Shown here: piece after piece, positions 5,295 to 45,727 of the stretch | How the letters are laid out: the number at the start of each line of letters is the position of its first letter | How positions within the stretch are numbered: the first letter of the stretch is position 1 | Assembly: GCA_963845755.1 (NCBI GenBank) | Contig: CAWJTV010000029.1 | Location: 128,001 to 192,000 of the forward strand | Reading direction: 5' to 3' | Origin: an uncultured Planctomycetota bacterium | Lineage (GTDB): Bacteria > Planctomycetota > Planctomycetia > Isosphaerales > Isosphaeraceae | Length of the DNA: 64,000 nucleotides | Position numbers and translations under genes: made by a program | Notes under the pieces: model-generated | Database searches by the model: none | The model's input: the letters and a program-made list of their open reading frames with translations, nothing else | Told to the model about the DNA's origin: nothing

Positions 5295-6230
5295 GAGCTT
5301 ATGGAATTTGGAGATCCGGGATTTCGGATCTCGAATCCGGAATCGGGAATCTCGAATCCGGAATCGGGAATCTCGAATCCGGAATCCACGCCGATCCGGA
5401 CGAGGGCCCGATGGACCTCATCGATGGTCTCGGGCAAGGTCGAGGTCCCCGCGGTCAGGCCGACGGTGGCGAACCCTTTGAACCACGCGGCGTCCAGGTC
5501 GGCCGCCGACTGGACATGCAGCGCCGGCTTGCCCCGCTCGCGACAGCGGGCGGCCAGCTCGCGCGTATTGTTGGAATGTTGCCCGCCGACGACCACCACC
5601 GCCTCGACCCGATCGATCAGTCGATCGAGGGCGCGCTGATGCTCCTTGGTCGGCAGGCAGACGGTGTTGAACGAACTGGATCTCGGCACCCGGATTGCGC
5701 TCCGCGATTGCGGCGCGGATCCCCGCGACGCGGCGTTCCGTGGCGGTTGTCTGGCAAACGACCCCCAACCGGCGGTGCGGGTACCCGGCCACCTCGTCCA
5801 CCGACTCGATCACATCGTAGTGGTCCAGGTCGCCGACGATTCCCTCGACCTCGACATGTCCCCTCCGGCCGATGACCAGGACATGATAGCCTTCGGCCTG
5901 GAGGTTCTGGGCCGCCTGGTGGACCCGCGCGACCAGGGGACACGTCGTGTCCACCAGACGCTTGCCGGCGGAGGCCAGCCGCTCCCGCTCCCGGTCGCTG
6001 ATCCCATGAGCCGTGACCAGTACGGCCGGCGTCGCCGGCAGCGAGTCCGCCCGCTGCGCCTCGCTCCTCATCGCGAACCCACGGGCCTGGAGCTGCGACT
6101 CGACGATCTCGTTGTGGACGAGCTGCCCGTGGATCGTCACCGTGGCCGGTTCTTCAATCGCGTCGATCACCTCCAGAGCGTCGCGGACCCCGAAACAAAG
6201 TCCCAACACCTCCGCTCGAATCACCCGCAT
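5291..6230 (-). CDS. ispH: 4-hydroxy-3-methylbut-2-enyl diphosphate reductase; +1 frameshift near 5670
   Basis: GLCFGV, LVHN, AHG, DTTCPLV, GHVEV, QTT, NTVC, VGGQHSNNT and TAGTST motifs across two ORFs. Confidence 0.92.
5312..5385. repeat. Tandem GAATCTC/GAATCCG/GAATCGG heptamer array inside the ispH 3' end
   Basis: Seen directly; translates as DSGFEIP repeats. Confidence 0.85.
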
Positions 6231-22199: not shown

Positions 22200-22370
22200 C
22201 CGATTCCAGGATTCCCGATTCCAGCTTGAAATCGAGGCGTTCTCTTCGTTCCGGAATCGGGAATCTCGAATCGGGAATCGGGAATCTCGAATCGGGAGTC
22301 TCGAATCGGAATCGGGAATCTCGAATCGGGAATCTCGAATCGGGAATCTCGAATCGGGAATCTCGAATCC
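22200..22370. repeat. Tandem GAATCGG/GAATCTC heptamer array with a short inverted arm
   Basis: Seen directly between the TolC gene and the next CDS. Confidence 0.9.
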
Positions 22371-23848: not shown

Positions 23849-25003
23849 CACCTCGACATCGGGACCAGTCCAAGTCGCCGACTCCAGCACCGTTCCTGCT
23901 GAATCGAACGCGCGTGGCAGATGGCGGAGGACTCGCCGCTGGCGAACACCGTCAAAACGGGCTCTCCGGCCTCGACGATCGTCCCGGGACCGGGGACGTC
24001 GGCGATCGAGGGTACGGCGAAGAGGTCCTCGAGTCCATCGGGGTCGATCCCCGCCGGCACGACGAGACGCCGCGAAGCATAGATCACGCGCTTGGCGATC
24101 ACGCGCGTGGGGCCGGGTTCCGGAGGAGCGGGGCCAGCGTGGAAACTCCCGGCTCCCTCACAGGCGCGACGATGCTCCTCCATCAGCGAGCGACCCGACG
24201 CCAGCTCGTGGATCTCGAGCGAGGCCGTATACGCGCGGGTTGACCTCGACCGGCCAGGGGATGCCATCTCGCAGGACGTAATCCACGCCGAACCACCCGA
24301 CGAGATTGTAGGCGGCCACCAGCCGGTTCCCCAGCGCCTTGAGGCGTTCCGCCAGTTCGGGAACGATCGGACACGGCCCGATGCTCCCCCGATACGCGAA
24401 CGGATGACCCGGAATGCCGATCCACTGCCTCGTGATGCCGATCAAGTGTGCCAGGCCGGCGCGGCCGATGAACAAAGCCGAGTAACTGGGCCCGTCCACG
24501 CGCCGCTGAAAGTAGACCGGTAACGAACTCGGCCCGGATTGAGACTTCAGAGGCTCGATCCCGCGCCCTCCTCCCGAGGCCCTGGGCTTGACGAGCCAGC
24601 TCCCATCGCGGGGGAGCCCGGAGGGATCGAGGCGCACCTCGGGCGCCGGGAGGCCGGCCTCATCCAAGGCGCGCGCGACCGCGATGGGGTCACGGACCGC
24701 GCGCAGAACCTCAGCCCCGACGCCCCAGAGTTGATGTCGTCGGGAAATCCGTTCGACGAGGTCCGGATGATTTTCCAATCCCCCTGTGTAGAACCAGGGA
24801 GTTTCTCCCAGAGCACGAGAGAAAGCGTCGGACCACCGCTCGAAAGCCTGATGAGTCTCAGTCCCGACCGGTTCGACCGGGCAGACCGCGGCCAGATCGC
24901 GGTCAGCGAAGCAGTCCACGCAACGCGGACGCAGCCCGCACCGCAACGCGGTGAACGCGGCGGCCCGGGTGCTCACACCCATGATCAAGACATTGTGTGA
25001 CAA
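23848..25003 (-). CDS. ATP-grasp protein of the H4MPT/methanofuran-linked C1 cluster type; frameshift near 24232
   Basis: STRAAA, DCFADRDL, WLVKPRASGGG, FGVD and EVNPR(Y)TASLE motifs; close to fae/mtd. Confidence 0.75.
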
Positions 25004-25123
25004 GGCGGTAACAAAAGGGCCTCGCCAGGCGAGAGATGCCCGGCGAGGCGCATTTCGGGAGGGAGAATCTCACCAGGACACCGTCGATGACAGAATCCGG
25101 GGATGGCGAGGTTGCCGATCCAC

Positions 25124-25474
25124 TCACTCCTCGTTCTTCTCGATCTTCTCGGCCGTGAAGACGAGCTTGCCATCCTCTTCCTTGCAGGTCCCGACGATCT
25201 TCACCTTCGCCGGCTTGTCCTTCTTGGCCCCGCAGAAGCCGATCTTCTGATGGGCGTCCTTGGCGACCTTGTCATGAACGATGTAATACGTCTTCTTCAC
25301 GCCATCTTTCGTCACGATGACGACGTTCTGGCAATCGGTCTTCTCCTTCAGGGCGCACTTGGCGCACATGCCGTCGCCCTTGAGGGTGAGCTTTTCACCC
25401 TTGTCATCCGCCCTCAGCAGACCCACGCTCGAGAACAGAATGCCAACCACCGCGAGCGCCAACAGTTTCCGCAT
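25124..25474 (-). CDS. Small exported Lys-rich protein with CAKC/C/HC motif (DUF6370-like)
   Basis: Signal peptide; GMCAKCALK..DCQN...H...C. Confidence 0.7.
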   Translation of the reverse strand: MRKLLALAVVGILFSSVGLLRADDKGEKLTLKGDGMCAKCALKEKTDCQNVVIVTKDGVKKTYYIVHDKVAKDAHQKIGFCGAKKDKPAKVKIVGTCKEEDGKLVFTAEKIEKNEE

Positions 25475-25765
25475 GATCGTTCTCCAATAAAGGATCAAGA
25501 CTCCAATCACGCACCCGAATCCCTGGGATTGGTGCGACACACCCGATTGTCGAAATGTTATTGAACCACCTCGACCGGGCAAGAACAATCTCTTAGTCCG
25601 CGAAAACCGGCCGAGACCGGCGTGCCGGGTAGCGTGGGGGTTGCCCGCAGCCGCTCCGTCGTCGTATGATTCGGGTCCAATATCGTCGTACGCCGCACGG
25701 AGCCCGGGCCGGGGCGAGAGCCGGAGTACGCATCCGCAGATGGCTCAACCACGGAGAACCACACC

Positions 25766-26272
25766 ATGGCCAGCAACATCCTCATGAATGTCGGCGAGGC
25801 CCTCGTTGGAGAGGGGAATGAGATTGCGCACATCGACCTGCTCATCGGCGACAAGACGGGGCCGGTCGGGACGGCGTTCGCCAATGCGCTGGCGAATCAG
25901 TCGGCCGGCCACACCAACCTCCTGGCCGTGCTGACGCCGAACCTGATCGCCAAGCCGGCCACGGTCTTGATCACGAAAGTGACCATCAAGGGGATGAAGC
26001 AGGCCGTGCAGATGTTCGGCCCTGCGCAGTACGCGGTGGCCAAGGCCGTGGCCGACTGCGTCGCGGACAATACGATCCCCGCCGCCCAGGCCGACGACCT
26101 GGTGATCGTCTGCGGCGTCTTCATCCATCCCGACGCGGACGACAACGCCAAGATCCTCAAGTACAACTACGAGGCCACGAAGCTCTCGATCCAGCGCGCC
26201 ATGAAGAGCCTTCCCACGGCGGCCGAGATCACCGCGCAGAAGGATACGGTCAAGCATCCGTTCGCGGGCTGA
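25766..26272 (+). CDS. fae: Formaldehyde-activating enzyme
   Basis: VGEALVGEGNEIAHIDLLIG, QMFGPAQ, GVFIH and C-terminal HPF motifs. Confidence 0.95.
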   Translation: MASNILMNVGEALVGEGNEIAHIDLLIGDKTGPVGTAFANALANQSAGHTNLLAVLTPNLIAKPATVLITKVTIKGMKQAVQMFGPAQYAVAKAVADCVADNTIPAAQADDLVIVCGVFIHPDADDNAKILKYNYEATKLSIQRAMKSLPTAAEITAQKDTVKHPFAG

Positions 26273-26444
26273 CCGCGACCCGGGAACCACGCGGCGCCGA
26301 TCCTTCGGACGGGCGGGCCTCGACCGATCGTCTCGGGCGGAGCCGCCCTCCCTCGCCGCGCGGGGGATGAAAGGGAATCGGATAGAAGATTGAAAATTCA
26401 AGATTCCATCAAGGTAATACCTTGTGCAGACGGGGTTTTTCGGA

Positions 26445-26521
26445 TTTCTCTGATCTCGAAATCTCGAATCTCTGAATCTCGAATCTCTGAATCTCGAATC
26501 TCGAATCCTGAATCGAGAATC
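26445..26521. repeat. Tandem GAATCTC heptamer array
   Basis: Seen directly between fae and mtd. Confidence 0.8.
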
Positions 26522-26554
26522 GATAGTTCACGGCCTCACGGCGGAGGGTCACCG

Positions 26555-27431
26555 ATGGCCACCATGAAGCCGAAGATCCTGATCCAGCTCGACACCGACC
26601 CCCAGCCCAGCGTCTTCGATGCGGTGGTGGCGGCCGACGCCGGCGCCGACCATCTGTTCCGGCACGGCGGGGTGACCGCGGAGAATGTCCGTGACCTGGT
26701 ATACGGGGCCCTCTTCACGCGCGGGCCGGCCGACCTCGCCGCCACGGCCATCTTCATCGGCGGCTCGAACGTGGCGGCGGGCGAGGCGGTGCTCGGCACG
26801 GTGAAGCAGACCTTCTTCGGGCCGTTTCGGGTCTCGGTCCTCTTCGACGCCAATGGCGCCAACACGACGGCGGCCGCGGCCGTCCTGGCCTGCTTGCAGG
26901 GCCGTGGCGGGTCGCTCCAGGGGGAGGCGGTGGCGGTCCTGGCCGCGACCGGTCCGGTCGGCCAGCGTGCCGCCAGGCTGCTGGCCCGACTGGGGGCGAA
27001 GGTGTCCGTCGGCTCGCGCAGCCTCGAACGCGCGTCGGAGCTCGCCAAATCCCTGCAACAGGCCACCGGTCAAGAGGTGTCCCCTTTCGCCACGACGCGC
27101 GATTCACGATCTGAGCAAGGCGCTGCGGGACAAGTCGGTCCTCATCAGCGCGGGCGCCGCGGGCGTCTCGATCCTGCCGGCTTCGGTCTGGAAGGCGTTA
27201 CCGGACCTCAAGGTCCTGATCGACCTGAACGCCGTCCCCCCGCTCGGCATCGAGGGAATCGAAGCCGACGACAAGGGGACCGATCGCGGCGGCGTCCATG
27301 CCTGGGGTGCCCTGGGCGTCGGCGGCTCCAAGATGAAGATCCACAAGAAGGCGATCCAGGAACTGTTCACCTCCAACGACAAGGTCTTCGACGCCGAGGA
27401 GGTCCTCGAACTGGGGCGTTCTCTGGGCTGA
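26555..27431 (+). CDS. mtd: NAD(P)-dependent methylene-H4MPT/H4F dehydrogenase (MtdA/MtdC-like); frameshift near 27100
   Basis: LDTDPQPSVFD, GALFTRG, DANGANTTAAAAV, TGPVG, DLNAVPPLG and GALGVGGSKMKIH motifs. Confidence 0.9.
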
Positions 27432-27463
27432 CTGAGACGAGACCGAAACCGCGAGGCATCGCC

Positions 27464-28484
27464 GTGATCCGCGTCGTCGGCAGCGATCCCGGGACGAGCA
27501 GCCTCGACCTCGTCTTGCTCGTCGAGGGTTCGGTCGCCGATCAGGTGCGGTTCCTCCCCGCGCAACTCCGGGACGATCCCGAGATCCTGGCTCGGCAACT
27601 CAATCGATGGTCGCCGCTCGATCTCGTCGCGGCGCCCTCGGGCTACGGATTGCCGTTGGTTCGCGGCGACGCGTTCTCGGACGACCATCTCGATCAGATA
27701 TCGCTGGTCCGGCCGGACGAACGCGGGCGCGATTCCGGAGTCCTCGGCTTCCGGGCCTGGGTCCGCGGCTTTTGTCGGATCCGGCGTGCGCGCTGGTCTT
27801 CCTGCCGGGCGGCCTGCATCTGCCGACGATCCCCGCTCACCGGAAGGCGAATGCGGTCGACCTCGGCACCGCGGACAAGGTGGCCGTCGCCGCCCTGGCG
27901 TTGTGGTTTGACTCCATCGCGTGGGGCGGGTTTGATGTGTCGACTTTCGCGGTCGTCGAGATCGGCTCGGCCTTCTCGGCGATCCTCGTCGTGGACCGGG
28001 GAAGGATCGTCGATGCCTCGGCCGGGACGCGCGGTCCGATCGGGCTGCGTTCGGGAGGCTGCTGGGACGGGGAATTGGCTTACTGGCGGGCTCGGCTCTC
28101 GAAGGACGACCTCTTCCGCGGCGGCCTGGCCGACCTGGGCGCGAGTCGGCCCGGCGGCCATCCGCGAATCGCTGATCAAGCACCTGGCCGGCTTGAAGGC
28201 CGTCACACCCTTCGAGCGAATTTACGTCTCGGGACGTGGCCTGGAAGAGCCCGAGATCGCCCGGATGACGACCGAAGCCCTCGCCCGTTTCGGCGCGAGT
28301 CACCCCCCTGCCCTCGCTCCCCGCCGCCTGGGTCAAGCATGCCGCACAGGGCGCGGCCCTCCTCGCCGATGCCCTGGCCGGCGGCCGGTATGCTCCGCTG
28401 GCCGCATCACTGCAGTTCGCATCGGCTTCGGGGTCGGTCTGGGATGTGGTCCAGCCTCCGGAACCCCCCGACCGTGAAACGTGA
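27464..28484 (+). CDS. DUF1464 family (ASKHA/butyrate-kinase-like) protein; about three frameshifts
   Basis: GSDPGTSSLD, APSGYGLP, DLGTADK, EIGSAF, DGELAY and VKHAAQGAALLADAL motifs across frames. Confidence 0.75.
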
Positions 28485-28523
28485 TCGGGTGCCTCGGGAA
28501 GCCTCGAAGAGAGTCGGCATCCC

Positions 28524-28895
28524 TTATTTCTTGGGCTGCACGAATTTGTTGGGCGTCCCCTCGAGCGGTCCACCCGGCTCGGGCCGCCACAAGACGACCT
28601 CCTCGATCTTGTGGGCCAGGGCGAAATCCTTGTCGGTGATTCCTCCTGCCGAGTGGGTCTTCAATTTGACCCAGACCTTGCCCCACGTGACCGCGAGATC
28701 CGCATGGTGCCAGGCCGCCTCGCACAGGTAGCCGATGGCGTTGACCAGCATCAGGGTGGTCGGCCAACCGTCGGTGTTGTACTTGCGACGGAGCCAGCCA
28801 TCGTCCAGGTTCCATTCTGATAGACCTTCCTCCTGAACCTTCGCAGCAACCTCCTCATCCGTGTAGGTTTTCGGTTTCTGCTTCGGGTCGCTCAC
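28524..28895 (-). CDS. Pterin-4a-carbinolamine dehydratase
   Basis: EAAWHHADL and THSAGGITDKDF motifs. Confidence 0.9.
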   Translation of the reverse strand: MSDPKQKPKTYTDEEVAAKVQEEGLSEWNLDDGWLRRKYNTDGWPTTLMLVNAIGYLCEAAWHHADLAVTWGKVWVKLKTHSAGGITDKDFALAHKIEEVVLWRPEPGGPLEGTPNKFVQPKK

Positions 28896-29037: not shown

Positions 29038-29859
29038 TCAAGTCCTGCGGACCTTCGAACTCTTCCCTTCCGAGCGAGGTCGCTGCGCGGGCTTCGCCGA
29101 AATCTGCGTCGGACCGACTCCCCAGAGATTCTGGACCAGTTCGTAGGCGACCGGGTCGTGCTTCTTCAGCTCGGAACGGACGAACGGATAGAAGTCATTC
29201 GTCCCGAAGAACGCCTCGGTCGCCTCGGCGAAGTACTCCATCGGATTCGTTGCCGCGTAGGCCTTGTCGTCGCGACCGTTGATCCGCAGCACCTTCTCGT
29301 AAATCTTCGACTTCATGGCTCGATCGTAGGCCGCCTTCACACGCGAGTTCTTGAAGCCGTCATTGAGGAACTGGTGGTGATAGGCGTGGGATAGCTCGTG
29401 CAGGACCATCCACGGCTGTTCGAGGGTCCAATCGAGGAAGGTCCGGGCGTTGGCGAGCTCGACGCATTTCTGTTTGTCCGGATTCATGCCGTGCGCCCTG
29501 AGCCAGGCCGCCTCGGGATGGTACGCCATGCAGGGCGTGTTCGGCTCCTTCTCCTCGACCCAGATCCGAACCTTCCGCAGTTTCTTCACGGCCACGACCG
29601 GGACGCGCCGGACGATCTGATAGAGCTGGTGCTGCAACAGGGTCAACGTGCGGTCGGCCAGGCTGCGACGCCGTTGGAGGAAATCTCGGTTGACCAGGAT
29701 CGTCCATCCTTCGATCGGCCTCGTCTCGTACTGCTCGGAAGTTGCCTTGGTGCGGGCTCGATTCATCGGACCGGGGACCTGGGACTGGACCTGTCCATAC
29801 GATGGACCGAAGAGGAATGCCAATACAAGGGAACACGCGAATGGTCGCTGGAGCGCCAT
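29038..29859 (-). CDS. Secreted zinc metallopeptidase (HExxH with distal E; lethal-factor/MtfA-like)
   Basis: Signal peptide; VLHELSHAYH and YAATNPMEYFAE motifs. Confidence 0.8.
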   Translation of the reverse strand: MALQRPFACSLVLAFLFGPSYGQVQSQVPGPMNRARTKATSEQYETRPIEGWTILVNRDFLQRRRSLADRTLTLLQHQLYQIVRRVPVVAVKKLRKVRIWVEEKEPNTPCMAYHPEAAWLRAHGMNPDKQKCVELANARTFLDWTLEQPWMVLHELSHAYHHQFLNDGFKNSRVKAAYDRAMKSKIYEKVLRINGRDDKAYAATNPMEYFAEATEAFFGTNDFYPFVRSELKKHDPVAYELVQNLWGVGPTQISAKPAQRPRSEGKSSKVRRT

Positions 29860-29960
29860 GGCGGCTCCTGACGATGAGAGATCGGATGAGGAACGGACCG
29901 GAACGCTGAGGGATGAAGGATGAGTGGGATCGGATTCATTCATCCTTCCGCCTTCATCCC

Positions 29961-30770
29961 TCATCCTTTCGAAGGCTCGCCCTTCCGCACTTGCGGCGCC
30001 TTCACCTTGATCATATGGTGGGTCTCCGCCTCGCGACCGATCGCATCCCGGCCCTGGAAGTAATCGCGCTGCCAGTCGTCCCCCTTGACCTGACCCTGGG
30101 CCTTCTGCTGGTGGAATTGCCTCCGCCCCATGTCCCATTCGTGGTAGGCGCGGTAGAGCTCGGGATCGTCGGTGAGCTGCTGGAACGTCACGTCGGCCTG
30201 TTCGAGGTCGGCGCAGATATTGCTCACCAGCGGGATCGTCTGGAAGAGCGGCTCGCCCTGCTCGAAGCGAACCGGCTGTTTCGGAGTCATAATTTTATAA
30301 TTCATCGTGAACGACATGCTGATCCAGTCGCTCTCGATCAGCGCGGTCAGGGGATGGGCGTTGGCCTTGAAGTAGTTCAACGGCCCGCAGACCAGGAGGC
30401 GCGATCCCTGGGGTTTCGTGCGGAAGAGGAAGGGCGTGTTCCAGGTGATGATCCCTTCGCCGAACTGGCTGTTGATCCACTGCGACCAGACCTCGCCCGA
30501 GGTGTCGAATTGGAAGTCGATCGAGCCGGGGTACGTCTCCCCGCGCCACGTCGCCGTGAACCCGACGGGATTCTTGACCCACCATCCCGTCTGATTGGCG
30601 ATCGTCAGCGGCAGGCAGCGGTAGGCATAGCGCTGCGGTGTGTTGTTCATCCACGTCCGCTGCCAGTCCGCCCACGACCACTCCCAGCCCGTCCCATCCG
30701 TGCGGTTCGGCTTCATCATGCTGGCGTCAGCGATCTGGTAGATATGAACCTCGAGCCGCGACTGATCCAT
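29961..30770 (-). CDS. DUF6065 family protein
   Basis: AYRCLPLTIANQTGW, GPLN, IESDW..SFTMN and WQRDYFQG motifs. Confidence 0.8.
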   Translation of the reverse strand: MDQSRLEVHIYQIADASMMKPNRTDGTGWEWSWADWQRTWMNNTPQRYAYRCLPLTIANQTGWWVKNPVGFTATWRGETYPGSIDFQFDTSGEVWSQWINSQFGEGIITWNTPFLFRTKPQGSRLLVCGPLNYFKANAHPLTALIESDWISMSFTMNYKIMTPKQPVRFEQGEPLFQTIPLVSNICADLEQADVTFQQLTDDPELYRAYHEWDMGRRQFHQQKAQGQVKGDDWQRDYFQGRDAIGREAETHHMIKVKAPQVRKGEPSKG

Positions 30771-30996
30771 GGATCGACCCTCGAAATAAGGGATCCCGGA
30801 AATGCCTGGGACATGGCGGAACCTGGCGGCAGGCTCAACGATGTCGCAAGGCGGACCTAGACTAACCTAACCGATCGATCAATTTCGAGCAATCGGGTCA
30901 TGTGGCCGGCACGCGCCCCGGAGAGTCGGCTCGCCGCGAATCGGTCCGCCGGAGGCCACACCGTGCCGATCCTTCGCGTGGCGCGGCTTGAAAGGC

Positions 30997-31819
30997 TCAT
31001 CGTTCATAACCGAAGCGTTCCATGAACTCCGTGATGGTCGAATTCGAGTACACCCTATCGAGTTGCTCATCCGCCAGCGTCGTCCGCCAGTGCGAGATCC
31101 GACTCGGGTCGAAACTCATGTGAATCCCGGTATCGAGATCGATCGTCGTCTGCCAGAGAAATCGGGCCGGGAACGGTCGCCTGAATGACTCCAGGAATCG
31201 CAACGAATGCGGCAGATCGAGGTGGGAATAGACGGTCCGCATCGTCATCTCGGGCCTGGAAAGCAGGTCTTCGTAACGGACGACCAGGATGTTGGGAGAA
31301 TTCAGGTGGGATTTCCAGGCCTGATAATTCTGGATGAGGTTGTCCCATCGTTCGACTTTCAGCTCCGGAGCGACTTCGGACTGGGACTCGATGCTGCCGA
31401 GAATCGCGCGGGTCGCGAACCGTGAAGATCAGCCGGTAGTTCGACGCCAGGTACTGGAGGAGTTCCGGACTTCGAAAGAAATCCGGATCCTTGTCCCCGA
31501 GTGCAAGGATATAGCTCTTCGAATACAATGCGGATAAGAGTGGAGACACCTGAGAAAACCAACTCAAGTAGCTCGCGATGTCGTCCTGCTTCTTCTCGTC
31601 GAGCAATCCGATGGTTTCCTCCAATGTCAGCCCATGGGCGACCATTCGATCGCAGTGAAGCCTCACGAAATAATCCCGGAAGAGCGCCCGATTGATCTCC
31701 GACTCACACAGGCAAATCGCGGCGGGATGATCATCGATGCAGCGGGCCATCAATGACGATCCGGTCCTCAGGGGGCCGACCACGAAGAACAACCCGGCTC
31801 GATAAAGATCGGTATTCAC
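30997..31819 (-). CDS. PAPS-dependent sulfotransferase; frameshift near 31405
   Basis: VVGPLRTGSSL (5'-PSB loop), GDKDP, VRDPR, VRYEDL and C-terminal FMERFGY. Confidence 0.8.
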
Positions 31820-31879
31820 GGGCCCCTCATGCCTCCACGGGATCAGTCATCATCGGTGAGGTCAACGCGACCGCCCCGC

Positions 31880-33819
31880 CTACCAGAAACGATCCGCAAT
31901 CTTTGCACCGGTCGATTCGGCGCCGGGAACTCGACCTTCGAACCCGAGATCCCCGAACGATACGGCCGCCGAGGTCTCGAGCAATTCGACGGATAGCCCC
32001 CAGCCGACCGGCAAGAAGAGCAACTCGGCCGGGTTGAGGAGGCATTCGATCACCTGGGGCTTATCCAAGGCTTCGCCGGCCCCGCCGGAAACCGGGGCAT
32101 CGAGCCCCATCGCGGAAGAGTCCGGGCTCTTGTGCAATAACGGCAGATCCCATGAGGGCGTGACCCGCACCTGCATCTTCCCCATCACGACGGCAAAAAG
32201 TTCAACTCGTGAGATAATAATGCGAGGAGGCGATCGCGCCAGGAGAGCCGAGCCAGAGGGACCCAGGCCAAACGTCGTTCCCATGCAGAAACTCCGTGAA
32301 GGGTCCGATCTCGGACCAGAGACCGGAGAGCTCGTCCCGATTGCGGCGGTCGTTCTCGACGACCCAGCACCGCCGATCCGAGGCGCCGTCGTCCCGGATC
32401 ATCGCGACAAGCTCGGCCATCCTGAGCGTGCGGGGAGGCGGCTCCTCATCGGCCTTGAGATGATCGGCGGCGTAGGGACCGGGGCGTGCCGCGATCGCGC
32501 AGTCGCCGAATCGTCGCGCGAGATCATCCAGGTTCCATCTCTTCAAGGCCGGCCAATCATTCATCATGCCACCGATAATAACAGGTCGGTTCTTGACGAC
32601 GAAGTCCCGGACGAGATCGGTGCGGGTCGGGCGTTCGCGGCGTTCGATCTCCCCCGATCCGGGGTGGAGTTCGACGAACCTTCCGGTACATCGTGAGCAA
32701 CCAGTCGCGCTTCTTCAGGCGGTTTCGTAGGCGCCAGGACCCCTGGAAATAGGGACTGCGCAGAATGCGACGGATCTCCTGATAAGATTCCTCCTCGGAG
32801 TACCCTTTCCCGGCGAGAACTCGCACCATGCTTTCGTGCGAGCCTTCCATCATGAGATTCTCCGCGAGCCATCGGCGCCAAGAGTCGTCCATCTTCCGGC
32901 TGATCGCCCCGGTCGGATTGCCGGCCGCGGTAAACGTGACGACCTCGTCTTCTTCGTCCTGACGATTCTCTTCAAAATACCAGGCAATTTCGCATCGATA
33001 CGACAGTTTGCGTTTCAGGCCCAGCGCGACCGGGTCCGGACGCGTCAACTCCGACGGAGAATCGGCTGCGACCTGGTCATCGAAGAGATGGGGTAATAGC
33101 ACGTTCGCCGCCGTGCCTCGCCGAGCCAGCTCCCCTAACATGCCCTGCGGAAGGTCGGGGAATGGAAAAAGCGTGACCCCTTCAGCTTGTGACAGCCAGT
33201 AGGCATGGATCACATTGAGATGCACCGTATCGGCCTGATTGTTGCCCGGCCGCGTCCCGTACAAGGCATGGATTCGACCGTCGAACCCGTTCCGTGCGAT
33301 CAGCGTCGCGATCTGGTATTCCTTCGCCAGGGTCGGCTTGGGAAACTCGCTCAGCGCCTCCTCCCAGCGTCGGTCATGGTAGCGCACCAGCTCATCTCGG
33401 ATGAGATGGGCCACCGGCTCGACCGCGACCACGCGACGGGCTCCTAACAAGACCCCGAAGATCAAGGCCGCCAGGCCGCCGAGTCCTTCTCCGAAGGTGA
33501 TGATTTCGCTCGGTTCAAGCCCGACGATCATCGATCGAAGCGAGGCCGAGACCGCATCGATGGTCCTGCCGAGCCCGGTCACACCCCGGAAAAAACCCGA
33601 TCGCTCGCTGTCGAAAAGGAAGACCCGGCTGAACGCGGGCGCATGGTGTCTTGCGATGTGCTCGAACAGCTCGGCATGTTCGAACGCACGCCCAGGTTCC
33701 TCGGCCCGCCCGAACACGAAGACGATCGGGGCATTGCGGCCGGCCCACTCGACCATGTATCCCTTGCGGCCACCCACCGTGTCGGGCCCCTCCCTCAGGA
33801 CGACTTCCTGCCTCGTCAC
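31880..33819 (-). CDS. Alpha/beta-hydrolase-like domain, helical domain and degenerate JmjC/cupin domain fusion; two or more frameshifts
   Basis: ORFs 32557-33819, 32202-32567 and 31880-32284 align in order with the 34212 hydrolase and the C-terminal half of the 35336 protein. Confidence 0.7.
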
Positions 33820-33983
33820 AATGGAAATCCTCGCTCGACTTCTTCGGCGGCGGCCGTCTCAACACAAGACCCCGGAACAACGACTCGCCGACTCGGAATT
33901 CGTGAAAGACTCGGAAAAAATCGCGATTGTCGCAAGGGAACCGGGCTCAAGAGGGAGGGTTTCTTCCTGACGCCAGTGGAATC

Positions 33984-34012
33984 CTCGTTCCCATGCACTG
34001 CGTGGGAACGAG
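33984..34012. repeat. REP-like palindrome CTCGTTCCCA-N9-TGGGAACGAG
   Basis: Perfect 10-bp inverted repeat, intergenic. Confidence 0.65.
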
Positions 34013-34211
34013 AGCACCCGGTATCGTTGCGACAGTCTCAAAACATTCGATACTCAAGGTCCAATCAACGCAAGGCCTCACTCGGCGACAACTTGCATCT
34101 ATCTTCAATTTGGCATTTACTATTTTGAATCGATCCCTTCACGGCCTTTCAGCCCGCCCGATGGACCACGAAGCCGAACGATCGAGCCGGCATGACGGGC
34201 CCTGATCGACC

Positions 34212-35048
34212 TTACGAGGCCCGGCAGGCAAAGGTTACGGCTCTGGAATCGTTCCAGTGCCGGTCAGTGCGCAGCAACCGGACGAACAGGTCGTCGAGCT
34301 GCCGATGCTCGGTCAACCACTGGACCACGGCGCGATTCGAATCGGGGTACGGGTGGAGATGGACATTGTGAAGCCGCGACAACCGAAGGGCGTGCATGGC
34401 GTCGAGATTCCCCGAGATGCCGTCGTCACGCCCTGGGTGCGTCCCGAAGACCAGATGGAGTTCCCCTCGAAAATCCACGGCCGCCCCGAGCTGGAGCAGA
34501 TCATCGTAGACAGACCGGGGTGGATCGGCCTCCAACTCCTCCATGACCGCCAGGAAGCGGCGATCGCCATGACAGGCCGCTTCGGAAGCCTTCAGATGGG
34601 ACAGGGTGACGAACGCAACGATCTGGTCCGCGTTCAGGAGCATGCCGAACATGATCGCGCCGTAGCCCCCCATTCCCTGTCCGACGGTGATCACCCGACT
34701 CGGCCGGATCGACCCGATGAGCCCCCTCAGGGTCGCCGCGACCTCATCCACATGGGCTCCCAATCCGGGAATCCCCCTGTGATACCAGGCGTTGACCGTG
34801 TCGCGAATCAGGAGGCGATTGTGCGGGACGTCGATCGATCCTTCCAGCCTCTTCAGGGACGCGAAGAAAGCGAAGGCCGGCAAGTGGTGCCAATCGGCGA
34901 ATGCGAAGCTGATGAACATGGGCTGACCGGGGAAACAACGGTCGATCAGGCACCCGATCTTCGGGTTCCAACGCGCGGTCTCCACCGCGGCGTTCGTGAG
35001 CTCGACCACATCCGAGAGCCTCGTGGCAGTCATGAAGCTGGATCTCAT
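34212..35048 (-). CDS. Alpha/beta-hydrolase-fold protein (elbow GQGMGG, no Ser)
   Basis: RDTVNAWYHRGIPGLG and VITVGQGMGGYGAIMFG motifs; D..HA near the C-terminus. Confidence 0.7.
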   Translation of the reverse strand: MRSSFMTATRLSDVVELTNAAVETARWNPKIGCLIDRCFPGQPMFISFAFADWHHLPAFAFFASLKRLEGSIDVPHNRLLIRDTVNAWYHRGIPGLGAHVDEVAATLRGLIGSIRPSRVITVGQGMGGYGAIMFGMLLNADQIVAFVTLSHLKASEAACHGDRRFLAVMEELEADPPRSVYDDLLQLGAAVDFRGELHLVFGTHPGRDDGISGNLDAMHALRLSRLHNVHLHPYPDSNRAVVQWLTEHRQLDDLFVRLLRTDRHWNDSRAVTFACRAS

Positions 35049-35335
35049 GGAATAGCCCTGGCAACTGCTCGACTTCGTCTCGATGGTCCCGGCTCGACCG
35101 AACATCCCGGTCGATGTCGCCGATGCGCCTGCCCTGGCGTCGGAGCCGGCTCGCGAGCCCTGCTGCGCGGGCCGGTCGCCCGATCGTGGGCAAGGATGTC
35201 CCTCATGGAAACGCCCGAGATTTCTCCCGACGCGGACGCGAATGAGGCCTGCGCACCGATTCGCCCGCGGACGCGGGAAGCCGGCCCCCCGTCATGTCGC
35301 CGCGGGGGCAGCTCCCTGCTCCGCGCCGTTCGAAC

Positions 35336-37429
35336 TCAAAGCGGACAGTAAGTCGTATAGAAGCTGGAGTAATCATTATCGAAAACGAAGTTGGTGAACG
35401 AGATCGTCACGGTGATGTCCAACCCCTGGACGTAGTGCATGCAGCCGATCGGCAGGAACAAGATTTCGCCCGGATTGAGGATGAACTCCAGGATCTGCGG
35501 CTGCTCGAGGGTGGGCCGGGCAGTCGGCGTCGCGACACGGCCATCGATCTGCGAGAAACAGTGGAGATAGTTGCGCATCAGCGGCATGTCCCACGACGGC
35601 ACGATCCTGAGCAGCTTTCGGCCGATGACCTGCGCCATGAAATTGTTGGTGAGGTCATGATGGAACGGCGTGACCGTGCCGGCCGGTCCCATCCAGAAAA
35701 AGCCCCCGGGTGGATTGTTCGTCAGATACTCCGGGATCTGCACGATGTCATCCCACAATTCGGATAGCGTGCTGCGGTTCGAGGTGCTGTTGTTGGCGGT
35801 GAGGTAAAAATCGTTGGTGTCGGCGGACGTGCGCACCTTCTCGATGAACTCGCTGAACTTGATCCGGCTGACATACTTCTGCCTCTCAACTTCATAATTC
35901 GGGCTCGCGTTGCGGCCCATCTGCACCTCGACGATCCGATCGCCGAACTTCTGCGAGAAGTAGTCGAGGCTCCACTTCCGGATGGCGACCCAATCGTCCA
36001 TCATACCGGTGATGATCACGGGCCGATTCGCGCTGTAGTACTCGCAAAGGAATTCGTCACGCGACAGGCGATGACGCCGTTCGACCGTGGCCGACTGGGG
36101 ATGGAGTCGGTTGCTCTTCCGATAGGCCGTGAACAGCCAGTCGCGCTTCTTGATTCGATTACGCAGGATCTCTGCACCCCTGAGATAGGGACTCTGCTGG
36201 GCCAGGCGGATCTCGTAGGCCGCTTCGTCGGCGGCGAACCCGATGGATTTCATGGTCTCGAGCATGCTCTCGATCGGCTGGCCGATCAACAGATTCTCGG
36301 AAATCCACCGGCGCCATTCATCGTTGACCTGGTAGCCAGCCGCCGGATTCGGCTTCGCCGCGGCAGCCTGAGGCGAATCATCACTGACCACGACCGGCCG
36401 CGAGACCTCGGGATGAGGTCGCAACGAACCATCCTGGCGCGGTTCGAGGGTGATCATCGTGGGGGTGCTCTGGGGGCGACGCGGTTCCATGGGAGTCCCT
36501 CGTGATAGATTCGTGTGCGAGGAGGTTGGCTCGAGAGGTTCGATGGGTTGACCGCCCTCGCCCGACGGACGAGGGCTTCCCGATCCGACATCCATGCCGT
36601 TCCGACCGTTGAGGTTGGAGGTCTCGGGATTCGTGGACGGATACTGCACTTTTGGTGGCTTGATCTTGACCATGTGGTAGGTCATGGCCTCGCGCCCACT
36701 CGCGTCGTGGCCCTGGAAGTAGTCGCGCTGCCACTCATCGGGCTTGACCTCGCCCTTGATCTTCTGGTCGTGGAACTGCTTCCGACTCCGGTCCCACTCC
36801 TGGTAGGCACGCTCCAATTCGGGATCGTCCGCGAGCTTCTGGTACGACACCAACGCCCCCTCCAGGTCGGCGCAAATGTTGTTCATCAGCGGGATGGCCT
36901 GGAACAACGGCTCACCCTGCTCGAACCGAACGGGGCGATCGGGGGTCATGACCTTGTAGTTCATCGTGAACGACATGCTGATCCAGTCGCTCTCGATCAG
37001 GGCCATCAGAGGATGAGCATTCTCCTTGAAGGAGTTGCTCGGGCCGCAAACCAGAAGGCGCGACCCCTCCGGTTTGGTCCGGAACAGGAACGGCGTGGTC
37101 CAGGTGATGATCCCCTCACCGAAATGATTGGTGATCGAATGTGCCCAGACTTCCGGTGAGACGTCGAACGCGAAATCGAAGCTACCGGGATGAGAACCAC
37201 CACGCCAGGTCGCGGTGAAGCCGACCGGATTCTTGATCCACCAGCCCGTCTGGTTCATGATGGTCAGTGGTAGACACCGATACGCGTGTCGCCGCGGCGT
37301 GTTGTCCATCCACTCGCGCTGCCAGTCCGCCCAGGACCACTCCCAGCCCGTCCCATCCGTGCGGTTCTGCTTCATCACCACATCTTCCGTGAGCTGATAG
37401 ATGTGAAGTTCGAGTCGTGGATGATCCAT
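35336..37429 (-). CDS. DUF6065 and JmjC (cupin_8) 2OG-Fe(II) hydroxylase fusion
   Basis: N-terminal half is paralogous to 29961-30770; C-terminal half has NRPVIITG, FWMGPAGTVTPFHHD, GRK and PGEILFLPIGCMHYV (HxD...H triad). Confidence 0.88.
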   Translation of the reverse strand: MDHPRLELHIYQLTEDVVMKQNRTDGTGWEWSWADWQREWMDNTPRRHAYRCLPLTIMNQTGWWIKNPVGFTATWRGGSHPGSFDFAFDVSPEVWAHSITNHFGEGIITWTTPFLFRTKPEGSRLLVCGPSNSFKENAHPLMALIESDWISMSFTMNYKVMTPDRPVRFEQGEPLFQAIPLMNNICADLEGALVSYQKLADDPELERAYQEWDRSRKQFHDQKIKGEVKPDEWQRDYFQGHDASGREAMTYHMVKIKPPKVQYPSTNPETSNLNGRNGMDVGSGSPRPSGEGGQPIEPLEPTSSHTNLSRGTPMEPRRPQSTPTMITLEPRQDGSLRPHPEVSRPVVVSDDSPQAAAAKPNPAAGYQVNDEWRRWISENLLIGQPIESMLETMKSIGFAADEAAYEIRLAQQSPYLRGAEILRNRIKKRDWLFTAYRKSNRLHPQSATVERRHRLSRDEFLCEYYSANRPVIITGMMDDWVAIRKWSLDYFSQKFGDRIVEVQMGRNASPNYEVERQKYVSRIKFSEFIEKVRTSADTNDFYLTANNSTSNRSTLSELWDDIVQIPEYLTNNPPGGFFWMGPAGTVTPFHHDLTNNFMAQVIGRKLLRIVPSWDMPLMRNYLHCFSQIDGRVATPTARPTLEQPQILEFILNPGEILFLPIGCMHYVQGLDITVTISFTNFVFDNDYSSFYTTYCPL

Positions 37430-37861
37430 GAATCAACCCTCATTCTCGTTTTTCCATGGAAACTCCCCAACGATGCGGGCTCGTTTGGGTCTGTCTGAGA
37501 ATCGCGAGCGATCCATTCTACCCTAGCCGTGGAGGTCCTGAAGAGCAATCGAGTGAGCGAACCGACTCGTGTGGTCATGACCTATCGACTACATCGAATA
37601 GATGGATCGAAGACGACATCCAGCCCGACGATCGGCATCGAAAAGTGTTTCAGTGGGATGACCCGTAAACGAACTACGAAGGCCAGGCTTCCCGGAGCAA
37701 ACCCGGCACCCATTCCTCCGGAGCGCCTGACCGCATGCTTATTGCCGTGTAAAAGCTATCTGACGTGAAAAATCATCGCTGTGAGCACCACGTAGAGAAA
37801 TTCCCTAGCTGGCACTTCGGGCTCGTACGAGCAACCCAAACGTTAGCGACGCTAGGCGGCC

Positions 37862-38017
37862 AGTAGAGTCGTCCTCCGTAGGATCCCTGCGCCGTGCGCG
37901 CCTCTGGGGATTCCGAATTCCGGATTCGGGATTCCGGATTCCCGGATCATTCCCCTTCGGGAATCCGGAATCGCGAATCGGGAATCCCGATCGGGTTGCG
38001 GCCGCAGGCCGCGTTAG
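37862..38017 (-). repeat. ~150-bp dispersed element, copy 2 (reverse orientation)
   Basis: Reverse complement matches 13961-14107. Confidence 0.85.
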
Positions 38018-38136
38018 GGAATTCCTGATGCGTACCCGGCTCGTTCCCGGATAGATCCGGCGGGAAAACCCAGTACCTAGGTAGGGTTTTCCCGCCGCTC
38101 GCCTGAACGCGGCCAAGGGCCGAGTCGGGCAATCCA

Positions 38137-39732
38137 TCATGGCGTCGGCGTCGGGGGCGGCGTCGGCGTCGGAGGCGTCGGCGTCGGGGGCGGCGTCGGC
38201 GTCGGAGGCGTCGGCGTGGGCGGTGGCGTCGGCGTCGGAGGCGTCGGCGTCGGGGGTGGCGTCGGCGTCGGAGGCGTCGGCGTCGGGGGCGGCGTCGGCG
38301 TCGGAGGCGTCGGCGTGGGCGGTGGCGTCGGCGTCGGAGGCGTCGGCGTCGGGCGGTCGGCGTCGGCGTCGGGGTGGCGTCGGCGTCGGGGGCGTGGCGT
38401 CGGCGTCGGGGGCGTCGGCGTGGGCGGTGGCGTCGGCGTCGGGGGCGTCGGCGTGGGCGGTGGCGTCGGCGTCGGGGGCGGTGTGGGCGGAGGCGTCGGC
38501 GTCGGGGGCGTCGGCGTGGGGGGTGGCGTCGGCGTCGGGGGCGTCGGTGTGGGCGGAGGCGTCGGCGTCGGAGGCGTCGGCGTCGGCGGTGGCGTCGGCG
38601 TCGGAGGCGTCGGCGTGGGTGGTGGCGTCGGCGTCGGAGGCGTCGGCGTCGGGGGCGGCGTCGGCGTCGGAGGCGTCGGCGTCGGGGGCGGCGTCGGCGT
38701 CGGAGGCGTCGGCGTCGGGGGCGGCGTCGGCGTCGGAGGCGTCGGTGTGGGTGGTGGCGTCGGCGTCGGAGGCGTCGGCGTCGGGGGTGGCGTCGGCGTC
38801 GGAGGCGTCGGCGTGGGTGGTGGCGTCGGCGTCGGAGGCGTCGGCGTGGGTGGTGGCGTCGGCGTCGGAGGCGTCGGCGTGGGTGGTGGCGTCGGCGTCG
38901 GAGGCGTCGGCGTCGGGGGTGGCGTCGGCGTCGGAGGCGTCGGCGTGGGTGGCGGCGTCGGCGTCGGAGGCGTCGGCGTGGGTGGCGGCGTCGGCGTCGG
39001 AGGCGTCGGCGTCGGGGGCGGTGTTGGCGTCGGTGGTGTCGGTGTGGGCGGAGGCGTCGGCGTCGGGGGTGTCGGCGTCGGGGGTGGCGTCGGCGTCGGA
39101 GGCGTCGGTGTGGGTGTCGGCGTCGGAGGCGTCGGTGTGGGAGGGGGAGTTGGGATTGGGCCGATGACGATTCCAGCCGCCTGGGCGACGTTGATGAAGC
39201 TCTGGGCCACCTGCTCACGACTCACACCCGAACCCAACTTGCGGAGCCAGAGGTTGAACTCCGTCGTAGTGGGTGTCTGATGCAGAACGTTCGTGTAGAG
39301 AGAAGTCACATAAGAAGGGGCCGAGCCGAACAGATCCACGCCCGCTTTCAGGAGGATTTGCTGTCGCTCGGACGAATTGAGCAGAACGGCGCGCAGGCCT
39401 TTCTTGCTGATTTCCCCGCTACGGAGTGCCGGTACCCACTGAGACACCTCGCCGTTAGTCGGCGCGCGCAGAAGGATGGCCTCGTACTGGGCGATCACGA
39501 ACAGTCCGGCGGGCGAGGTATCAATACCGCTGTCCAGGCCAGTTTGACCACCGGTTGCCGCCGGTTGGGCAAGAGTCGCCGACTCCTCTTTGCCCCGACC
39601 AGCCGTCGATAGGAGCTGGCGTTTCTCAAGAGCCGCGGCCAATGCGGCAAGCTCAGGGGAGTAGCGTCGCTTCGGGCGAAAGTACTTCGAGGGTCCCATC
39701 TCTCGCATGAGCTTCTTCAGCTTCCGGAACAT
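38137..39732 (-). CDS. Exported DUF4214-domain protein with a long C-terminal Pro/Thr repeat
   Basis: KRR...LEKRQLLS leader; two DUF4214-like units (YEAILLRAP...W...L, YVTSLYTNVLHQTP...W...SREQVAQSF); (TPTPPPTPTPP)n to the stop. Confidence 0.85.
   Translation of the reverse strand: MFRKLKKLMREMGPSKYFRPKRRYSPELAALAAALEKRQLLSTAGRGKEESATLAQPAATGGQTGLDSGIDTSPAGLFVIAQYEAILLRAPTNGEVSQWVPALRSGEISKKGLRAVLLNSSERQQILLKAGVDLFGSAPSYVTSLYTNVLHQTPTTTEFNLWLRKLGSGVSREQVAQSFINVAQAAGIVIGPIPTPPPTPTPPTPTPTPTPPTPTPPPTPTPPTPTPPPTPTPPTPTPPPTPTPPTPTPPPTPTPPTPTPPPTPTPPTPTPPPTPTPPTPTPPPTPTPPTPTPPPTPTPPTPTPPPTPTPPTPTPPPTPTPPTPTPPPTPTPPTPTPPPTPTPPTPTPPPTPTPPTPTPPPTPTPPTPTPPPTPTPPTPTPPPTPTPPTPTPPPTPTPPTPTPPPTPTPPTPTPPPTPPPTPTPPPTPTPPTPTPPPTPTPPTPTPRPRRRRHPDADADRPTPTPPTPTPPPTPTPPTPTPPPTPTPPTPTPPPTPTPPTPTPPPTPTPPTPTPPPTPTPPTPTPPPTPTP
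38140..39155 (-). repeat. Coding tandem repeat, 33-nt period (TPTPPPTPTPP)
   Basis: Seen directly; variation falls mostly at third codon positions of the Pro/Thr frame. Confidence 0.95.
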
Positions 39733-45295: not shown

Positions 45296-45727
45296 CTGAC
45301 GCGGCCTTCGGCCGCAACCCCATCGGGATTCCGGATTCGCGATTCCGGATTCCCGAAGGGGATTGATCCGGGATTCCGGAATCGCGAATCCGGAATTCGG
45401 AATCCCCAGAGGCGCACGGCGCAGGGAGCCTACGGAGGAAGACGCTGACGCGGCCTGCGGCCGCAACCCCATCGGGATTCCCGAAGGGGAATGATCCGGG
45501 AGTCCGGAATCTCGAATCCGGAATTCGGAATCCCCAGAGGTGCGCAGGGCGCAGGGAGCCTACGGAGGAAGACGCTGACGCGGCCTGCGGCCGCAACCCC
45601 ATCGGGATTCCCGATTCACGATTCCGGATTCCCGAAGGGGATTGATCCGGGAGTCCGGAATCTCGAATCCGGAATTCGGAATCTCCAGGATGCGCGCACG
45701 GCAGCAGGGATCCTTCGGTGGAAGACT
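45296..45727 (+). repeat. Three head-to-tail copies of the ~150-bp element (starts 45296, 45445, 45575)
   Basis: Each unit begins CTGACGCGGCC and ends GGAAGAC; unit 2 lacks three heptamers. Confidence 0.9.

Follow-up and report, generated by a model that had tools for sequence, protein, structure and literature searches.

Why should a planctomycete keep the gene for a protein with a long threonine- and proline-rich tail beside a gene for a JmjC-type oxygenase, and what might the enzyme do to such a tail? The question is raised by seven genes, all on the minus strand, at positions 29038-39732 of a window of 64,000 nucleotides (the whole stretch of DNA analyzed here; contig CAWJTV010000029.1, positions 128,001 to 192,000) from an uncultured member of the Isosphaeraceae, the window being part of a 14.3-Mb assembly of 49 contigs (GCA_963845755.1). 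A preliminary description, made from the letters alone, had listed an exported Thr/Pro-repeat protein, a DUF6065–JmjC fusion, a hydrolase-fold protein, a second hydrolase-fold protein fused to a degenerate JmjC domain, a sulfotransferase, a second DUF6065 protein and a secreted metallopeptidase. Open reading frame (ORF) and Pfam analysis placed the seven genes in this order and orientation and matched DUF4214 (E 4e-13, two stretches), DUF6065 (2e-65) together with Cupin_8 (1e-33) within a single 697-aa ORF, Sulfotransfer_3 (9e-8) and a second DUF6065 (7e-67). We propose, with moderate confidence and from sequence comparison, that the JmjC enzyme hydroxylates the Thr/Pro tract, most probably at Pro residues, while the protein is still in the cytoplasm, and that sulfation or O-acylation may optionally follow.

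The Thr/Pro-tailed protein and the DUF6065–JmjC fusion

The putative substrate (38137..39732, minus strand) has a putative leader of planctomycete type (motif LEKRQLL) and two DUF4214 stretches, and ends in a C-terminal Thr/Pro tail. The tract itself (38140..39156, minus strand) consists of a 33-bp unit (TPTPPPTPTPP) repeated 30.4 times, the frame being lost and regained over a short stretch near 38390-38357, and its 339 residues, close to the 340 first estimated, comprise 208 Pro and 118 Thr. Synonymous variation is found between the 33-bp units, and in relatives with an intact frame through the tract the tail is likewise terminal, with no domain behind it. The motif, recognized by eye, recurs as LE[KD]RxLL in 11 of 13 family members listed (the relatives having LEDRxLL), whereas neither NF012209 (LEPR-XLL) nor any other NCBIfam model matched the protein; its initial designation as exported is based on this motif, and export is putative.

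The core enzyme (35336..37429, minus strand) joins DUF6065 (aa 25-257), a short helical module (aa 367-417) and a JMJD5-like JmjC domain (aa 458-677). The last belongs to the Cupin_8/JmjC family (117.6 bits against a cut-off of 27.4), and its nearest solved relative is JMJD5 (E 3e-31), with TYW5 weaker (E 2e-7). Mapping onto the metal-, 2-oxoglutarate (2OG)- and arginine-binding residues of JMJD5, as given in an excerpt of the published account (PMC5862942), identified the Fe/2OG residues H590, D592 and H665 (HxD...H), N596, K605, Y542, T587 and W579; the triad and the 2OG-binding Tyr, Trp, Ser/Thr, Asn and Lys are invariant in 37 of 37 family members, except for the distal His (36 of 37). The enzyme hence shares its fold, triad and 2OG residues with JMJD5 (KDM8), described in the same excerpt as an arginyl C3-hydroxylase of the FIH/JMJD5/JMJD7/TYW5 clade (PMC5862942). 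Unlike JMJD5, it is bacterial, carries an added N-terminal helical module and is linked to Thr-Pro tracts, and the position of the Arg-binding E238 is Gln in all 37 members, so that the family is not one of JMJD5-orthologous arginyl hydroxylases. Because this Glu is replaced by an invariant Gln, the core JmjC domain is probably active on a substrate other than Arg.

The helical module (36179..36331, minus strand; about 50 aa with the motif W..W+.ENL) directly precedes the JmjC domain, contains two conserved Trp residues and models as three helices; an Atlas match (0.79) is taken as a lead only. Its profile also matches the N-terminus of a prolyl 4-hydroxylase (P4H)-like protein, the C-terminus of Janthinobacterium hydrolase-family members and some DUF6065 proteins. 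The same module is fused to four protein types (JmjC, P4H-like, α/β-hydrolase and DUF6065), which suggests a common targeting unit. The P4H-like protein matches solved prolyl 4-hydroxylases (bacterial, E 3e-53; algal, E 5e-42), and its gene directly adjoins that of the JmjC enzyme in several loci; a search for it in the host genome gave no match.

More distant relatives of the module and JmjC domain (32-39% identity) occur on viral contigs L289, L290 and L291, two of them phage-like and one a giant-virus metagenome-assembled genome (MAG). At loci L271 and L286, the JmjC gene lies near ORFs of 72-92 aa of a common type (MSxLLDY.NHLD..ADAR.AH) and near the gene for a 'GRLVCVGTG' protein, surroundings that may point to peptide maturation.

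Association of the JmjC family with (Thr-Pro)n tracts

Within the Isosphaeraceae we collected 40 regions around DUF6065 matches, 27 of which hold DUF6065 followed by this JmjC domain. In 12 of these fusion loci the gene immediately upstream, on the same strand, encodes DUF4214 with a (Thr-Pro)n tract, (TP)n; another Pro/Thr-tract gene lies within 7.1 kb in six, and nine lack a tract gene, some of these having short flanks. An ortholog of the sulfotransferase is near eight, the peptidase near six and the hydrolase pair near two. The conserved unit is the tract gene together with the DUF6065–JmjC fusion; the sulfotransferase, hydrolase pair and metallopeptidase are optional. The preliminary description had read the shuffled, twice-occurring domains as the mark of a single complex, and these counts, together with the absence of DUF6065 from all five proteobacterial JmjC genomes tested, do not bear this out: a dedicated seven-gene complex is rejected, since recurrence is limited to the JmjC fusion and the gene with the tract.

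A genome scan with the module and JmjC domain as query gave 61 loci, which were combined with 80 metagenome loci and dereplicated at 80% identity. A tract lies within 5 kb in 26 of 49 dereplicated loci (flanks of at least 5 kb, the window included) and within 3 kb in 23, against a background of 2.4% and 1.5%, respectively, at random points in the host genome. A quick JmjC tree, used only for this purpose, spreads the tract-adjacent loci over several separate clades. The tract-bearing partners are DUF4214 and FG-GAP proteins in Isosphaeraceae and, in betaproteobacteria (Janthinobacterium, other Oxalobacteraceae, Chitinimonas and two further MAGs), chitinases of the form CBM5/12-(TP)n-GH18, GH19 or ChiC, where (TP)n is the chitinase linker and the adjoining JmjC genes lack DUF6065; others are TbpB-like lipoproteins and a TPS protein (both in alphaproteobacteria), a protein of Methylotenera and, in a series of metagenome loci, a further lipoprotein. 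Both of the two alphaproteobacterial DUF6065 regions (out of 26) in which DUF6065 is fused to this JmjC domain have a (TP)n gene within 1 kb. The JmjC family tracks the (TP)n tract and not the folded domains of its partners.

Whole genomes show the same association. Of 28 JmjC-bearing genomes that were checked out of those with the 61 loci, 27 contain the (TP)6 codon pattern; among 301 genomes of Janthinobacterium's order (Burkholderiales) it occurs in all 14 with a full-length JmjC compared with 32 of the 287 without, and in 10 of 10 carriers after four already-known genomes are dropped. Three genomes of the order with only ~32%-identical JmjC paralogs lack the pattern. The P4H-like gene occurs in 48 of these 301 genomes; 21 of the 48 are (TP)6-positive, among them all four tract-rich genomes of the order without JmjC. 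In the Isosphaeraceae, where 35 of 37 matching genomes were counted as JmjC carriers (two at 26-31% identity being dropped), (TP)8 occurs in 32 of 35 carriers versus 21 of 86 noncarriers, and at least 20 (TP)8 matches occur in 23 of 35 versus 1 of 86; 23 of the 24 tract-rich genomes thus carry JmjC. The sole exception, G109 (99% complete), has 68 (TP)8 matches and the DUF6065 and peptidase genes, with no JmjC match.

The preliminary description had linked enzyme and substrate by adjacency alone and had asked whether homologous clusters contain repeat proteins. Many of them do, in two distant lineages, and the link is strengthened by these cross-phylum neighborhoods and by the phyletic co-occurrence. 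Its notion of an enzyme dedicated to one protein seems not to hold: the host genome has 25 (TP)5-bearing ORFs, as well as a second intact copy of the module and JmjC domain (G000:C22:66628-67713) with transposase-like remnants beside it and no (TP)n tract within 10 kb, and because of these the enzyme looks genome-wide in scope.

Predicted hydroxylation of the tract and rival explanations

We hypothesize that client proteins with (TP)n tracts would be hydroxylated by the JMJD5-like JmjC enzyme in the cytoplasm and then exported, with the conserved Trp residues of the module serving to dock it on the polyproline-II tract. The attacked residue would most likely be Pro, at C3 by the habit of this JmjC clade, and optional partners (two sulfotransferase families and a Ser-Asp-His hydrolase/acyltransferase) may cap the new hydroxyl or the hydroxyls of Thr. 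The modification would probably make a linker or surface bristle that is exposed to proteases stiffer and better protected. At this locus the DUF4214 protein would be the nearest client, the hydrolase–JmjC fusion a conserved double pseudo-enzyme that possibly acts as a scaffold, and DUF6065 with the metallopeptidase a loosely attached submodule. A wider version, which we put forward tentatively and regard as rather doubtful, is a general bacterial (TP)n modification system in Gram-negatives and planctomycetes, with the Trp module as a polyproline-II reader swapped among JmjC, prolyl 4-hydroxylase and O-acyltransferase. On that view the JmjC enzyme would be the first peptidyl-proline hydroxylase of its fold, and chitinases, lipoproteins, TPS and DUF4214 proteins would bear linkers that are hydroxylated, acylated or sulfated, or surface bristles of extensin type. 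The association suggests what the natural substrates of two families may be, the orphan bacterial JmjC family and the widespread P4H-like one, and it leads one to expect that everyday secreted enzymes, Janthinobacterium chitinases for example, carry a modification that has been overlooked; a small, portable module targeting Pro/Thr tracts would also serve protein-linker engineering.

Several known systems resemble this proposal in part. Prolyl hydroxylation of a tobacco class I chitinase was reportedly described by Sticher in 1992 and 1993, and is said to fall in a Thr-Pro spacer. As with plant P4H acting on that spacer or, reportedly, on extensins, a Pro/Thr spacer of a secreted chitinase would be the target here and a P4H-like gene carries the same module; the plant enzyme is a P4H of the eukaryotic secretory pathway, whereas the present one is a bacterial JmjC enzyme predicted to be cytoplasmic. 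In the system of serine-rich repeat (SRR) glycoproteins and accessory Sec, a repeat adhesin is modified in the cytoplasm before export, with Asp2 as O-acetyltransferase (excerpt of PMC5578698); the repeat surface protein and a serine-hydrolase-type acetyltransferase as tailoring step are shared, unlike the oxygenase core and the single enzyme family for many unrelated clients, and neither glycosyltransferases nor SecA2/SecY2 were found among the cluster genes or recurrent neighbors scanned. Iyer et al. (2010) predicted bacterial hydroxylase and sulfotransferase operons for collagen-like or tail-collar proteins (PMC2938197, in excerpt), with the same logic of hydroxylation then sulfation and a co-encoded, low-complexity exported substrate. 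The earlier statement that no such system had been described appears to hold for this family, but the hydroxylate-then-sulfate idea had been predicted, in the excerpt of PMC2938197, for other dioxygenase families with Gly-rich substrates. In mostly open-access literature we found no paper naming DUF6065, none tying JmjC to Thr-Pro linkers or to hydroxylation of Janthinobacterium chitinases (the neighborhood supplement of PMC2938197, outside the search, may contain the family), and none on a bacterial prolyl hydroxylase with a proline-threonine linker or on prolyl hydroxylation of a threonine-rich chitinase linker. In bacteria, hydroxyproline within peptide chains is regarded as rare: two bacterial prolyl 4-hydroxylases are counted in a 2018 review (PMC6219649).

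A number of observations weigh against hydroxylation of the tract. No tract lies within 5 kb in 23 of the 49 dereplicated loci (Dyella, Chitiniphilus, Rhodocyclaceae and others) or near the three small viral-contig JmjC relatives, and two members of a syntenic metagenome series, L259 and L274, keep JmjC although the search found no partner gene there. The 32 Burkholderiales genomes with (TP)6 and without JmjC, the three of 35 Isosphaeraceae carriers without (TP)8 and the 27 of 48 P4H-like carriers without the (TP)6 pattern, a broader distribution, fall outside the rule. The (TP)n search was made at the DNA level without a frame check, and some matches are simple repeats; the phyletic counts ignore kinship, so that Fisher p-values are overstated, and genome size; and the adjacency background comes from one genome, that of the host. 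A glycan substrate would fit both the capsule O-acetyltransferase that is the top fold match of the hydrolase family and the sulfotransferase- and glycosyltransferase-like ORFs (motifs by eye) that adjoin distant hydrolase relatives. Finally, we know of no precedent for JmjC action on peptidyl Pro.

The genome-level dose relation would be accounted for equally well if the JmjC enzyme hydroxylated a ribosomal protein, an elongation factor or a tRNA and so eased the synthesis or export of Thr/Pro stretches, the tract itself remaining unmodified. A bacterial prolyl hydroxylase of EF-Tu is reportedly known. TYW5, the weaker relative, is a tRNA enzyme, and JMJD5 acts on RPS6 according to the excerpt of PMC5862942. 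We nevertheless think such an aid to translation unlikely: it leaves unexplained the repeated independent adjacency to tract genes and the sulfotransferase and acyltransferase partners, the Arg-binding Glu of JMJD5 is replaced in the family, and most tracts are (TP)n without Pro-Pro. Cellulases with PT linkers, moreover, are expressed in Escherichia coli without such help. Quite unlikely, in our estimate, is that Thr is O-glycosylated by an unlinked transferase and that JmjC, hydrolase/acetyltransferase and sulfotransferase decorate the glycan or its nucleotide-sugar precursor. Beyond the O-acetyltransferase fold match (6yuo), this would suit the weak XcbB/CpsF match (E 0.003, far below the cut-off), the recruitment of a Stf0-type sulfotransferase at L078 and the acetylation by Asp2 of GlcNAc on serine-rich repeats (excerpt of PMC5578698); however, no glycosyltransferase family recurs beside JmjC in the loci scanned (the one GT2 cluster is confined to some Dyella copies), both the P4H-like partner and the clade of the JmjC enzyme are peptide hydroxylases, and of the 14 Burkholderiales genomes with JmjC just one was found to have the hydrolase.

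It is very unlikely, we judge, that the tail is a precursor from which DUF6065 (with its conserved Cys), JmjC or the exported metallopeptidase cuts a modified Thr/Pro polymer, even though no domain follows the tail, the genes for DUF6065 and the peptidase tend to occur together, two of the loci scanned have a distant DUF6065 gene after short ORFs for Pro-containing repeat peptides, and JMJD5 is reported as a protease in an excerpted source. Chitinases carry the tract as an internal linker, so that cutting it would cost them their chitin-binding modules, and the proteobacterial JmjC genomes tested lack DUF6065, as noted above. Finally, many betaproteobacterial partners are chitinases and tract-rich Isosphaeraceae tend toward large genomes, as would be expected if JmjC had an unrelated small-molecule role and merely accompanied a chitin-degrading or large-genome lifestyle. 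This we consider highly improbable given at least five unrelated non-chitinase partner families, tract-adjacent loci in several JmjC clades and small genomes that obey the rule (e.g., G213, 2.8 Mb); a chitin lifestyle as sole cause is rejected by the non-chitinase partners.

Accessory genes and surroundings

The first α/β-hydrolase-fold protein (34212..35105, minus strand; database start about 35033) belongs to a family with GQSMG, Asp and His, and differs from it in 6 of 59 conserved columns. It is likely inactive because the nucleophile Ser is replaced by Gly and the His by Arg. The family has no Pfam match and no significant PDB match by sequence; the hydrolase fold first assigned to it was borne out by a model of the relative P0168 (pLDDT 91.5), whose best match, with VIA-align (used for this and the DUF6065 model below), is the capsule O-acetyltransferase 6yuo (Z 17.2, root-mean-square deviation [rmsd] 3.2, 201 aligned; next Z 16.0). 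Scores of 11-17 bits with NF033892 (cut-off 125) place it outside the Asp2 and XcbB-CpsF O-acetyltransferases. The second protein, a pseudo-hydrolase fused to the module and JmjC (31880..33819, minus strand; frame changes about 32680 and 32200), has four relatives in other loci, each one whole ORF of 602-685 aa and equally degenerate: they share the loss of the nucleophile Ser, which the family at large keeps along with Asp and His, and the HxD...H triad is absent from the JmjC domain (31880-32880) in all of them, which agrees with its earlier labeling as degenerate and places it outside the active oxygenases. At L126 the hydrolase is fused to an intact JmjC as one ORF, both active as judged by their residues. 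In metagenome loci L229, L233, L241 and L246, a tandem two-domain hydrolase gene directly follows JmjC.

Of 76 columns that are invariant in seven relatives, 69 are retained in the sulfotransferase (Sulfotransfer_3; 30997..31819, minus strand), whose gene has a single frame change near 31410. The protein scores as a 3'-phosphoadenosine 5'-phosphosulfate (PAPS) sulfotransferase (33.1 bits against a cut-off of 27; RTGSS and RDP motifs by eye), and the genome has an adenosine 5'-phosphosulfate (APS) kinase gene. A Stf0-type enzyme takes its place at L078 and, by motif only, at L037.

The stand-alone DUF6065 paralog (29961..30770, minus strand), 74% identical to the fused copy, has invariant R38, W40, Y50 and C52. 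A DUF6065 model (pLDDT 86) adopts a dUTPase/dCTP deaminase fold (best match 5y5o, Z 8.4, rmsd 3.0, 120 aligned), the top 21 structural matches being dUTPases, dCTP deaminases or herpesviral proteins, which last we take to be dUTPase-derived; identity in these alignments is 8-16%, and no dUTPase Pfam family matched. A dUTPase-fold protein with a conserved Cys, as in DUF6065, is part of the Syn9 dioxygenase array (excerpt of PMC2938197). DUF6065 is found in 75 of 121 Isosphaeraceae genomes and gave no match in the viral contigs or annotated phages. As a general marker of Pro-rich neighbors it mostly fails, as 24 of the 26 alphaproteobacterial regions lack a (TP)n tract; two of the 24 have other Pro-rich proteins 8-12 kb off. 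In Sinorhizobium medicae (L166:5394-8675, CP140910.1), the gene for an autotransporter with a poly-Pro linker is followed after 9 bp by the start of DUF6065; in an S. meliloti strain (L167:7768-8702, CP050512.1) a 76-aa remnant is left of the autotransporter and DUF6065 is split in two, a picture that resembles co-decay. At L191 and L194, the ORFs ahead of distant DUF6065 homologs are short and made up of repeated GNMSPAF or GMMAPAF units.

The Zn-metallopeptidase-like protein (29038..29859, minus strand) has HExxH at aa 154 and, by eye, a signal-peptide-like N-terminus, in keeping with its designation as a secreted metallopeptidase, but its Peptidase_M90 and ATLF Pfam matches are both below cut-off. 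It also follows stand-alone DUF6065 in four loci without JmjC.

With intergenic gaps of 60-707 bp and a promoter and terminator scan of the locus at chance level, co-transcription as a single operon is not established. The frame changes (two in the hydrolase–JmjC gene, one in the sulfotransferase gene and a compensated pair in the tract) are probably assembly errors, because relatives of the broken genes have whole ORFs and 9 of 50 unrelated conserved genes of the assembly also contain a frame change (some possibly from the query side). Behind the tract gene lies an interspersed repeat element (37860..38030, strand unassigned) that is not part of the system; it is based on GGAATCC/GAATCGG heptamers and occurs in 212 copies of at least 90 bp over 32 contigs, with further copies in the window at 5328-5387, 22253-22369, 26453-26507 and 45323-45614. 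Window positions 24158-28895 hold genes that by eye resemble what we take to be a planctomycete methanopterin-linked C1 cluster (fae-, mtd- and ATP-grasp-like), along with a Pterin_4a dehydratase (Pfam); the gene near 27300-28500 appears frameshifted.

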